From Candidatus Hermodarchaeum yapensis (lineage in GTDB: Archaea > Asgardarchaeota > Hermodarchaeia > Hermodarchaeales > Hermodarchaeaceae), in assembly GCA_016840405.1 (NCBI GenBank), contig JAEOSK010000022.1, forward strand, positions 1-45,822: a stretch of 45,822 bases of DNA, given 5' to 3'. The notes under the pieces are model-generated. The model made no database searches and was not told the DNA's origin. It was given only the letters and a program-made list of their open reading frames with translations. Made by a program: the position numbers and the translations under genes. Below, one piece after another: positions 1-2,634 of this stretch. Every line of letters begins with the position of its first letter. Position 1 is the stretch's first letter.

Positions 1-453
1 TGGTGTAGGGTTTTCGCCCTATCTAACTGCATACATCTGTGAAGTACCGTAACGGTGAGAAGCAGACCAACGCAGGAGTGGCCTACCGTATAAGGTGGGT
101 ACCGCTGGGCCCTGGATCCACTGAAAAGGCGCGCGGGAAGGAGCCCCCGTGATCGTACCCAGAACCGACACAGGTGCCCCTAGCTGAGTAGGCTCAGGCG
201 TTTCGGGTTACAGCAGGCGAGGGAACTCGGCAAATTAGCCCCGTACCCTTGGAAGATGGGGTGCCTTAGGTCTTCTGCTCGCAGGGGACCAGAGGTCGCA
301 GTGACAAGGGGGGCCCATCTGTTCAATACAAACATAGCCGACTGCAAGGGCGAAAGCCTGTGTACAGTCGGTGAATCCTGTCCAGTGACTGTATGTTAAG
401 GCTCAGTTCAATGGGCTCAAGCACAGTTAAACGACGGGAGTAACTATGACTCT

Positions 454-1149
454 TAGCTAAACACCAAATGGGAGTCGTAAAATCCGGCTATATGCTGGAA
501 CGCTCGATCCTTTCGCTCCTGAGTAAGGGACAATGCGGAAGGAAATGAGAGTAATCAGCAGGAAACCGAAAACAGGTGAGTTACATGCGAAGACAGAAAA
601 TATACTCGTATCTGCTCGGTATCATCGATGCCGAAGGATGTTTCAGTGTTTCAATCAAGAAGCAAGACACTGCACGATTCGGATGGGTCATAGACCCAGT
701 CTTCCATGTCACACAACATCATTCCGCGCGAGATGTCCTCGAAGATCTCAAGTCTGCCTTCAATGCTGGACGGATTATCCCCAAACCCGGGCAGGAAAAC
801 CTGCTCATCTTCATTGTGGATAACCGCCGTCAACTTGTAGAGAAGGTAATTCCATTCTTCACCCGGTATCCACTCCGGATAAAGAAGAACGATTTTGAAA
901 TCTTCAAAGAAATCGTTGAAGCGCTGGAACGAAAAGAGCATGGCACGGAAGACGGGTTCAAACGACTCGTCAAGAAAGCCAGAAGTTTCAAACGCGCTCG
1001 TAAAGGGCGCTACAAATATTCCCTCGAAGATATTCTAGGAACCGAAGAATAATTTCGGGATTCCTCAGAGACTATACGCCGGACACACCACTCAAACCCA
1101 TAGTATGGAGAGTAGTGTGAAGATATAGTCCGGCCACACAATGTGGTTG
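454..1149 (+). ncRNA. Group I self-splicing intron at the E. coli 23S L1923 equivalent, with an ORF in P6
   Basis: Removal restores GTAACTATGACTCT|CTTAAGGTAGCC. The 5' exon ends in U453, paired to G471 in P1 (GACTCT 448-453 / GGAGTC 471-476). P3 TCCGGC 483-488 / GCCGGA 1078-1083; P4 TGCTGG 493-498 / TCAGCA 555-560; P7 GACTA 1070-1074 / TAGTC 1126-1130; R TCAGAGACTATAC; S AAGATATAGTCC; P9 1134-1146; terminal omega-G at 1149. Confidence 0.95.
585..1052 (+). CDS. Single-motif LAGLIDADG homing endonuclease, I-CeuI-like
   Basis: YLLGIIDAEGCFSVSI motif. FGWVIDPVFHVTQH...GRI...IVDNRRQLVEKVIPFF resembles I-CeuI, which occupies the same L1923 site. AGGTGA RBS at 574-579 favours ATG 585 over GTG 576. 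Confidence 0.93.
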   Translation: MRRQKIYSYLLGIIDAEGCFSVSIKKQDTARFGWVIDPVFHVTQHHSARDVLEDLKSAFNAGRIIPKPGQENLLIFIVDNRRQLVEKVIPFFTRYPLRIKKNDFEIFKEIVEALERKEHGTEDGFKRLVKKARSFKRARKGRYKYSLEDILGTEE

Positions 1150-1672
1150 CTTAAGGTAGCCAAATGCCTTGTCGGATAAGTACCGACGCGCATGAATGGA
1201 TCAATGAGGTCCCTACTGTCCCCGCCTGCTACCCGGTGAACCCACCTCCTGGCGAACAGTCCAGGGACACCCAAAGGGAAGAGAAGACCCTGTGGAGTTT
1301 TACTGCAGCCTGTTGCTGGGTTACGGGCATTGATGCAGAGCGTAGCTGGGAGACGTCGAAGCCACCCTTGCGGGGGTGGTGGAGTCGCCAATGGAACACC
1401 AGCCTTTAATGTTTGCAGCTCTTAATGCACCAAACGGCGCATGACACCAGCAGGTGGGCAGTTTGGCTGGGGCGGCACGCCCACGAAAAGATATCATGGG
1501 CGCCCAAAGGTCAGCTCAACGCGGACAGAAACCGCGTGTAGCGCGCAAGGGTAAAAGCTGGCTTAACAGTGCCCCGAAAAGCAAAGGGCGCTGGTGCGAA
1601 AGCAGGGCCTAGCGAACGATCAAACCCTACCGATGAGGGTTGGTCACGTCAGAAAAATTACCCCAGGGGTAA

Positions 1673-1817
1673 TCTCAGGCCGGACGAGAACGGCGAGTCA
1701 CACACTTCTCAAACACCACTACGTGCTCTTTGGAAGCGGAGCCTGGGGTAACCGCAACCAAGAGCATCACATCACGATTACAAAACTCGCCAAGTAACAC
1801 CGACCTGGGACCCTAAA
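1673..1817 (+). ncRNA. ORF-less 145-nt rRNA intron, bulge-helix-bulge-like, in the peptidyl-transferase loop (U2449-C2452 equivalent); boundaries ambiguous by 2 nt
   Basis: Removal restores CCCCAGGGGTAA|CAGAGTCGTCGC. Terminal stem TCTCAGG/CCTGGGA; exon-intron 4-bp helix GGGT/ACCC or AGGG/CCCT flanked by A-rich bulges; internal stems GGCGAGT/ACTCGCC, TGCTCTTTGG/CCAAGAGCA and GCGG/CCGC. No group I core and no terminal G. Confidence 0.85.
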
Positions 1818-1931
1818 CAGAGTCGTCGCGGGCAAGAGTCCATATCGACCCCGCGGCTTGCTTCCTCGATGTCGGCTCTTCCTATCCTGGGGGTGCATTA
1901 GCTCCCAAGGGTAAGGCTGTACGCCTGTTAA

Positions 1932-1974
<43 letters not shown>

Positions 1975-2100
1975 ATTCTCTCTTTTGGGTGCGTTGGGTG
2001 ATTGAGGGTCAGGTCCGCTCGGTACGAGAGGAACGGCGGATCGCAGCCACTGGTGTACCGGTTGTCTGATAAGGCATCGCCGGGCAGCTACGCTGTGCCC

Positions 2101-2131
<31 letters not shown>

Positions 2132-2154
2132 GGGTCCCGAGACGAATCACCCAC

Positions 2155-2215
2155 TCCATAATCATTGGGTGCATAGCCCACGGCGGGCTTGGCGACTTGA
2201 ACGCCGGATTGTGGA
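2155..2215 (+). other. Enlarged helix 98 / ES39 expansion segment of 23S rRNA
   Basis: 61 nt between AATCACCCAC and CGAAGGCTCCGG, closed by TCCATAATC/GATTGTGGA, with internal hairpins (AGCCC/GGGCT or TGGGT/GCCCA; GGCG/CGCC). Confidence 0.75.
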
Positions 2216-2634
2216 CGAAGGCTCCGGTAAAAGACCGGTTTGAACGAGCGGCCGTGTACGCATCGAGCCACGGCGAGATGTTGAGCGGGCCGCCACGTAC
2301 CGCCTAAGTGTGTTGCTTTCGAAAGGAGCTATAAGCTCTGATTCTGGAGTGATATTTTCTCAGGGTATGCGACCACCACTTTCTTTTTCAGATAATGTAT
2401 GTTGGTTGGAGTTAATCATTTAAACATGAATTGGAGCATTCTAAAACAATGGACAATTCCATAAGATTTTAGAAAAAACCTGTTTTTATCTTCTTAATAG
2501 CAATACAAACAGTACATGAATTATTAAATTAGTCATTTGTTTGTTTAATTCCTCTAAGGAATGGCTTATATATCTCAAAGGGCAAAAGACCCTACACGAC
2601 TGCATTTTAGAAAATGCAGCGTCGAGGGAAAAAA

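Follow-up and report, generated by a model that had tools for sequence, protein, structure and literature searches.

The 45,822-nt stretch of contig JAEOSK010000022.1 analysed here (the window) begins inside a 23S rRNA gene, whose portion present in window positions 1-2319 is broken by two large inserts. The gene-level features are listed below:

1-2319, forward strand: archaeal 23S rRNA gene, 3′ approximately 1400 nt (Rfam RF02540, LSU_rRNA_archaea, 1137.8 bits, model positions 1587-2987)
454-1149, forward strand: group I intron at E. coli position L1923, with U453 as 5′ exon end and G1149 as intron end
576-1052, forward strand: LAGLIDADG_1 endonuclease ORF within the group I intron (Pfam PF00961, 68.5 bits)
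1672-1816, forward strand: probable BHB intron of 145 nt, ORF-less, missing in intronless relatives, with a rod fold, without an Rfam family and with predicted circular release

Joining of the exons across 454-1149 gives back ACUAUGACUCUCUUAAGGUAGC, which places the first insert at E. coli position L1923. The Rfam model Intron_gpI reached 25 bits on this intron, a score below the gathering score, and picked out P7-type motifs in a match that is interrupted by the ORF. Two ORF-less group I introns, one in the same bin (G000:C17, 70 bits) and one in the congener G007 (61 bits), both scored above the gathering score with this model, and their starts align with the exon-intron junction of the window's group I intron. 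The second insert, of 145 nt, lies approximately 520 nt downstream of the group I intron in the same gene and belongs, as the original prediction proposed, to another mechanistic class.

The C17 contig carries a second 23S fragment on its minus strand (G000:C17:1-2154, L065), covering Rfam model positions 659-2340. Its group I intron, located at C17:401-663 and 263 nt long, starts in alignment with the L1923 junction of the window, and the contig ends approximately 200 nt short of the BHB-intron site. This 23S could belong to a second operon that has diverged, or to a relative that was co-binned.

Position and register of the 145-nt insert

The 145 nt interrupt the 23S rRNA at the bond that corresponds to A2450-A2451 of E. 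coli, in the central loop of the peptidyl-transferase centre. A position in this centre next to the catalytic A2451 had been predicted, and it is now narrowed to the exact bond. Intronless genomes of the same phylum read uninterrupted as ...GAAAAGTTACCCC(A/G)GGG(G/A)TAACAGAG..., also written ...TACCCC(A/G)GGG(G/A)TAACAGAG..., and the intronless target site sequence is TTACCCCAGGGGTAACAGAGTCGTCGC. Genome G024 has CCCCAGGGGTAACAGAG, identical to the joined exon ends of the window. The G at E. coli 2448 is unlike the Rfam consensus, yet normal in several families of the phylum.

BLAST against intronless relatives ended the 5′ exon at 1672 and began the 3′ exon at 1816, which gives an insert of 145 nt, and the two exon ends overlap by 2 nt because AA is present at both junctions. 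Owing to the same repeat the registers 1671-1815, 1672-1816 and 1673-1817 give one and the same spliced product. Three congeners have GGGGTAT/TCTC at the 5′ junction, which excludes register 1673-1817 with its exon ending in ...TAA and fits a cut after UA, and with this register gone the BHB rule led to the choice of 1672-1816. An insert of 145 nt at 1673-1817 had originally been predicted; its size stood, as did its reality, for which the intronless relatives speak, and only its register had to be given up.

The Rfam alignment of the gene shows a gap for an insert of 160 nt put 17 nt too far 3′, after GGUAAUCUCAGGCCGGA, and this placement was rejected as a misalignment on the evidence of the intronless relatives. 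The cmscan misplacement is explained by the first bases of the intron (GGUAAUCUCAGGCCGGA), which weakly mimic helix 89 and can be aligned to its 5′ strand. Genes of this kind would receive a wrong junction from automatic rRNA annotation.

The insert alone folds as a rod of -44.3 kcal/mol (z = -3.64), which none of 200 shuffles equalled. No ORF lies wholly within it, as three listed ORFs (41-67 aa) extend into flanking exon sequence, and a search of 1660-1830 against Rfam at permissive thresholds returned only a meaningless 10-bit match (best E = 2.7) and no ribozyme or other RNA family. The description of the insert as a rod lacking both an ORF and a ribozyme core has accordingly held.

The splice motif and its variation across the phylum

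The elements of the motif around and within the insert are the following:

1666-1669, forward strand: helix H, 5′ exon strand GGGG (E. coli 2445-2448), pairing with C1811-U1814, constant in 14 introns and found independently by RNAalifold
1670-1672, forward strand: bulge B1, UAA, between H and h′, with a predicted EndA cut after A1671 (= A2450)
1673-1683, forward strand: intron helix h′, 5′ strand UCUCAGG C CGG, pairing with 1800-1810 with one C/A mismatch
1692-1791, forward strand: rod interior, with a helix 1692-1698:1785-1791 and an apical hairpin 1723-1767 (RNAalifold)
1800-1810, forward strand: intron helix h′, 3′ strand CCG A CCUGGGA (pairing and covariation; RNAalifold)
1811-1814, forward strand: helix H, intron strand CCCU, constant in 14/14 introns
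1815-1817, forward strand: bulge B2, AAA, with a predicted EndA cut after A1816 and the 3′ exon from A1817 (= A2451)

Helix H consists of three G-C pairs and one G-U pair, and h′ of the pairs 1673-1679:1804-1810, the C/A mismatch and the pairs 1681-1683:1800-1802 (7 + 3 bp); the length of h′ is given as 7-11 bp, running on into the long rod. The orientation is that of an archaeal BHB, in which each strand read from 5′ to 3′ has H and then a bulge. A 4-bp exon-intron helix with flanking bulges had been foreseen and was found as 1666-1669:1811-1814 with its two 3-nt bulges. The accompanying claim that canonical BHB cleavage fails to restore the exon proved mistaken, as the predicted cuts behind nucleotide 2 of either bulge would join ...GGGGUA(1671) to A(1817)CAGAG... 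and so give back the intronless sequence without change. The UAU of the congeners at B1 likewise fixes the exon end at ...GGGGUA.

With the canonical rule restoring the exon, the argument by which a relaxed endonuclease substrate had been proposed falls away. The proposal itself survives for another reason, since an exon-exon outer helix h was not found at the 3′ bulge either by opposing the flanks (CCCCA versus CAGAG, 2/5 pairs) or by constrained folding, and the motif is therefore formally HBh′ and not strict hBHBh′. This relaxed form stays within the BHB family as defined (PMC5829648). According to the Rfam structure lines, the bases before G1666 form helix 74 in the mature rRNA and the bases after C2452-A2453 go into helix 89. 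When H forms, helix 74 loses its last two G-C pairs, and what is left of it could conceivably stack under H and replace h.

RNAalifold applied unguided to the three short congeneric introns recovered H, the 3-nt bulge and h′, and in these mini-introns the rod keeps its pairing with 4 pairs changed on both sides. In a 211-nt context the BHB conformer has -59.3 kcal/mol versus -60.2 kcal/mol for the free optimum, a cost of 0.9 kcal/mol, and the free optimum slightly favours a local exon hairpin UUACCCC/GGGGUAA over the BHB.

The end of the 5′ exon in the window (1657-1673) is a near-palindrome, AUUACCC CAG GGGUAAU, whose 7-bp hairpin rivals H in the folds. The UAU bulge of the congeners would weaken this hairpin.

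The distribution of the intron was surveyed in 400 genomes of the phylum, which were scanned by pattern for its 3′ junction. The scan matched 24 of the 400 genomes and 21 were kept, the matches in G312, G313 and G335 being dropped as lying outside rRNA. Since many MAGs have no assembled rRNA, the intron is present in at least 21 of the 400. Four of these genomes are from the window's genus, the window included, 12 are from family f4 and 5 from family f6, among them Thorarchaeota SMTZ1-45. Three other species of the window's genus have the same-site intron in separate assemblies.

From families f1, f4 and f6 a total of 14 distinct introns of 145-793 nt were delimited. All 14 have H as GGGG:CCCU, B1 as UA/N and B2 as NA/A (AAA or GAA), and the sequences of h′ vary by lineage, with UCUCAGG/CCUGGGA, UCUCUAG/CUAGGGA, UCUUUAG/CUAAGGA and CUGCGCUU/AAGCGCAG among others. 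Across the 14 introns, each of the h′ pairs 1-7 is represented by at least two types of standard pair in which both partners differ. Counted over H and h′ together, 159 of 168 cells hold standard pairs, and displacing the 3′ partner by 1-3 nt lowers this number to 34-93. Three further f4 introns with the exon variant TTACCTC, missed by the first pattern, have identical geometry.

In the f4 lineage (L034-L045, L066, L070, L071) the introns at the identical site are ORF-poor and 335-381 nt long, and those of the three further f4 genomes are approximately 400 nt. They have H as GGGG:CCCU, B2 as GA/A or AA/A and unrelated h′ sequences (CUGCGCUU/AAGCGCAG and similar). The f4 intron was found in 12 of the 31 sampled genomes of the family.

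Homing-endonuclease relatives and splicing enzymes

At the same site and with the same ends, the congener G007 has an intron of 665 nt, of which the first approximately 42 nt are shared and the last approximately 90 nt align with the short introns, the match being best in the final approximately 45 nt. The ORF of this intron encodes 192 aa with two LAGLIDADG-type motifs (LAGLIDADG_3, PF14528, 37.4 bits), and a PDB sequence search with the protein returned no match. Introns of 739-793 nt that occupy this site in Thorarchaeota SMTZ1-45 and other archaeal MAGs, mostly of family f6, encode proteins 61-64% identical to this homing endonuclease. Compared with the G007 intron, the window copy has approximately 520 nt deleted and most of the homing-endonuclease gene (HEG) is gone. 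The short introns of the window, G002 and G011 are 145-148 nt long and 91-92% identical over a matched stretch that comprises the intron and flanking exon. As HEG-bearing homologues have the same ends, these three short introns are regarded as deletion remnants of a mobile intron. They fall into the category of ORF-less "remnant" BHB introns known from rRNA (Jay and Inskeep, PMC4496867).

The 23S rRNA gene of G007 (G007:C20, L004/L047; L064:1322-1571, minus strand) also contains both intron types. The HEG is there in the 665-nt BHB intron and none is present in the short group I intron (61 bits), the reverse of the arrangement in the window.

EndA and RtcB had been named as the machinery to be expected, and both are encoded in the genome. 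Of two EndA paralogues, the one assigned as alpha (PF01974, 102.7 bits) has the Tyr/His/Lys triad and its closest match (161 bits) in the catalytic alpha subunit of the heterotetrameric Aeropyrum pernix enzyme, with which it aligns without gaps through the Crenarchaea-specific loop (CSL), its K41 standing opposite K44. The second paralogue (69 bits) was marked as the beta subunit because the catalytic His is absent, and it matches the fused beta-alpha protein of M. kandleri, the EndA of M. jannaschii and, weakly, the A. pernix beta subunit. As predicted from their sequences, the two paralogues make an (alpha-beta)2 EndA with an L1/CSL loop. An (alpha-beta)2 EndA with the L1 loop was inferred for Asgard archaea by Kaneta et al. 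2018 (PMC5829648), who also showed that relaxed HBh′ and hBH motifs are cleaved by the loop-bearing type. The EndA subunit type had been suggested as a check, and it came out as the type that cleaves HBh′ motifs. The RtcB gene (509.9 bits) is divided between two contig ends. In archaea, one and the same endonuclease splices tRNA introns and the BHB introns of rRNA (PMC4496867).

Interpretation and relation to known introns

The favoured explanation, to which a probability of about 0.9 is given, is that 1672-1816 is a BHB intron of an Asgard 23S rRNA gene at the bond between A2450 and A2451, spliced by EndA and RtcB and remaining from a mobile HEG-bearing intron. In the precursor, GGGG at 1666-1669 would be released from helix 74 or the central loop to pair with CCCU of the intron at 1811-1814. 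The (alpha-beta)2 tRNA-splicing endonuclease would then cut after A1671 and after A1816, and RtcB would ligate the exons to ...GGGGUA-ACAGAG... and circularise the intron. The short form would have arisen from a HEG-bearing ancestor by loss of approximately 520 nt, including most of the two-motif LAGLIDADG gene. The insert, the covarying motif, the HEG-bearing homologues and the enzyme genes are observed, and cleavage, ligation, circularisation and the rearrangement of the exon are in this scheme inferred.

Ligation being such a prediction, the transcript could instead be cut at the BHB without religation, or be processed otherwise, so that a 23S rRNA in two non-covalent pieces divided between A2450 and A2451 results. 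Fragmented and circularly permuted rRNAs do exist in prokaryotes, a circular permutation of the P. furiosus 23S being reported in PMC7758197. Against such a split rRNA stand the RtcB gene of the genome, the location of the site in the catalytic core, the HEG-bearing homologues that act as classical mobile introns, and the fact that archaeal rRNA genes are well known to carry BHB introns (PMC6125680), which are spliced by EndA (PMC4496867); this outcome is considered very improbable. There is a similarly slender chance that the 23S copy is non-functional or foreign, either a pseudogene or the contig of a co-binned relative, in which case the insert would not need to be removed here. The bin does contain the second 23S fragment on C17, with exons 88-98% identical and a different group I intron, and its contamination is 4.4%. 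However, the scores of the window exons are those of a well-conserved archaeal LSU whose core sequence is intact, the same-site intron recurs in three other species of the genus in separate assemblies, and the compensatory changes in the rod argue for selection on the transcript. Given the second fragment in the bin, the window copy may not be the sole or principal working 23S gene of the organism.

The presence of the group I intron approximately 520 nt upstream raises the question of a degenerate self-splicing intron, of group I or II, or of removal in trans by the neighbouring group I ribozyme. This reading is extremely improbable, as the insert has no ribozyme core and no Rfam match and is with 145 nt too small, and as the conserved and covarying feature is the BHB. 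Group I features looked for in 1672-1816 gave no match to a catalytic core (P3-P9), and the 5′ exon ends in A and not in U, the intron in A and not in G. Splicing of a mobile-intron remnant by EndA and RtcB accounts better than any of these rivals for the combination of a conserved, covarying BHB with homologues that carry a HEG.

It is also conceivable, although quite unlikely, that the intron is more than a selfish remnant, with its splicing coupled to the folding of the peptidyl-transferase centre or acting as a checkpoint for it, with CUGGGGUAA serving as a chaperone in cis, or with a functional circle. The coupling is suggested by two traits of the BHB, which needs G2445-G2448, bases that otherwise belong to helix 74 and the central loop, and which lacks an outer helix. 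The apical loop CUGGGGUAA (1743-1751) is complementary to UUACCCCAG of the 5′ exon (1658-1666) and mimics the ligated junction too. This loop is kept in the four introns of the genus and in one Thorarchaeia intron, and in G007 the motif sits within the C-terminal codons of the HEG (SGVTH). The complementarity is absent from the other Thorarchaeia introns and from the five f4 introns checked; it was for that reason rejected as a general feature, and its patchy conservation indicates that it is not required for splicing.

The intron class and a dual-mechanism rRNA gene are both known already. BHB introns with and without LAGLIDADG genes are classical in archaeal rRNA (PMC4496867; PMC6125680). 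The novelty implied in the original prediction, of one gene combining ribozyme splicing with EndA/RtcB splicing, is anticipated by Nawrocki, Jones and Eddy 2018 (PMC6125680), who reported group I and BHB introns together in archaeal rRNA genes. A search of open-access text, outside which much of the older literature lies, found no paper naming an archaeal intron at the bond between A2450 and A2451. The Asgard host, this exact site and the breadth of the intron family in the phylum may be new.

The window thus adds to the known class a case in which an Asgard 23S rRNA gene carries a BHB intron exactly at the A2450-A2451 bond of the catalytic centre beside a group I intron, and the current picture of archaeal splicing is unchanged by it. 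The intron family, in HEG-bearing and remnant forms, is present in at least three Asgard families and is of use for studies of homing-endonuclease spread. For the rRNA annotation of Asgard MAGs it matters that such introns break assemblies, primers and covariance-model alignments. The intron is moreover predicted to offer the (alpha-beta)2 EndA of Asgard archaea a natural HBh′ substrate in pre-rRNA.

In organellar LSU rRNA the same GGGAUAACAG segment houses group I introns, among them the yeast mitochondrial omega intron with its I-SceI site. Omega-type introns are likewise mobile, driven by LAGLIDADG proteins and directed at the same universally conserved peptidyl-transferase sequence; they are self-splicing ribozymes, whereas the intron in the window is without a ribozyme core and has a BHB.

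Thermoproteota carry BHB introns in 23S rRNA (Desulfurococcales and Thermoproteales) and in 16S rRNA (Thermoproteales, PMC4496867). These share with the window's intron the 4-bp helix with two 3-nt bulges where exon and intron meet, an interior folded as a stable rod or hairpin, insertion into highly conserved rRNA sequence and, as predicted for it, splicing by EndA, and there too full-length members carry LAGLIDADG genes and others are ORF-less remnants. The intron described here differs from them in its Asgard host, its site between A2450 and A2451 and its want of an evident outer helix. Nawrocki et al. 2018 (PMC6125680) likewise describe an IB4-type group I intron with a LAGLIDADG ORF at LSU/1923 and a BHB intron in the same LSU gene. 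Their 39 introns are mostly from DPANN, Thaumarchaeota and Aigarchaeota with no Asgard host after filters, the sole Lokiarchaeota-binned contig being judged bacterial. With the relaxed HBh′ tRNA introns of Kaneta et al. 2018 (PMC5829648) the present motif shares one well-formed bulge between H and h′, another splice site that adjoins H without a closing helix, and an enzyme type with the specific-loop lysine encoded in the genome, while the substrate is here pre-rRNA instead of pre-tRNA.
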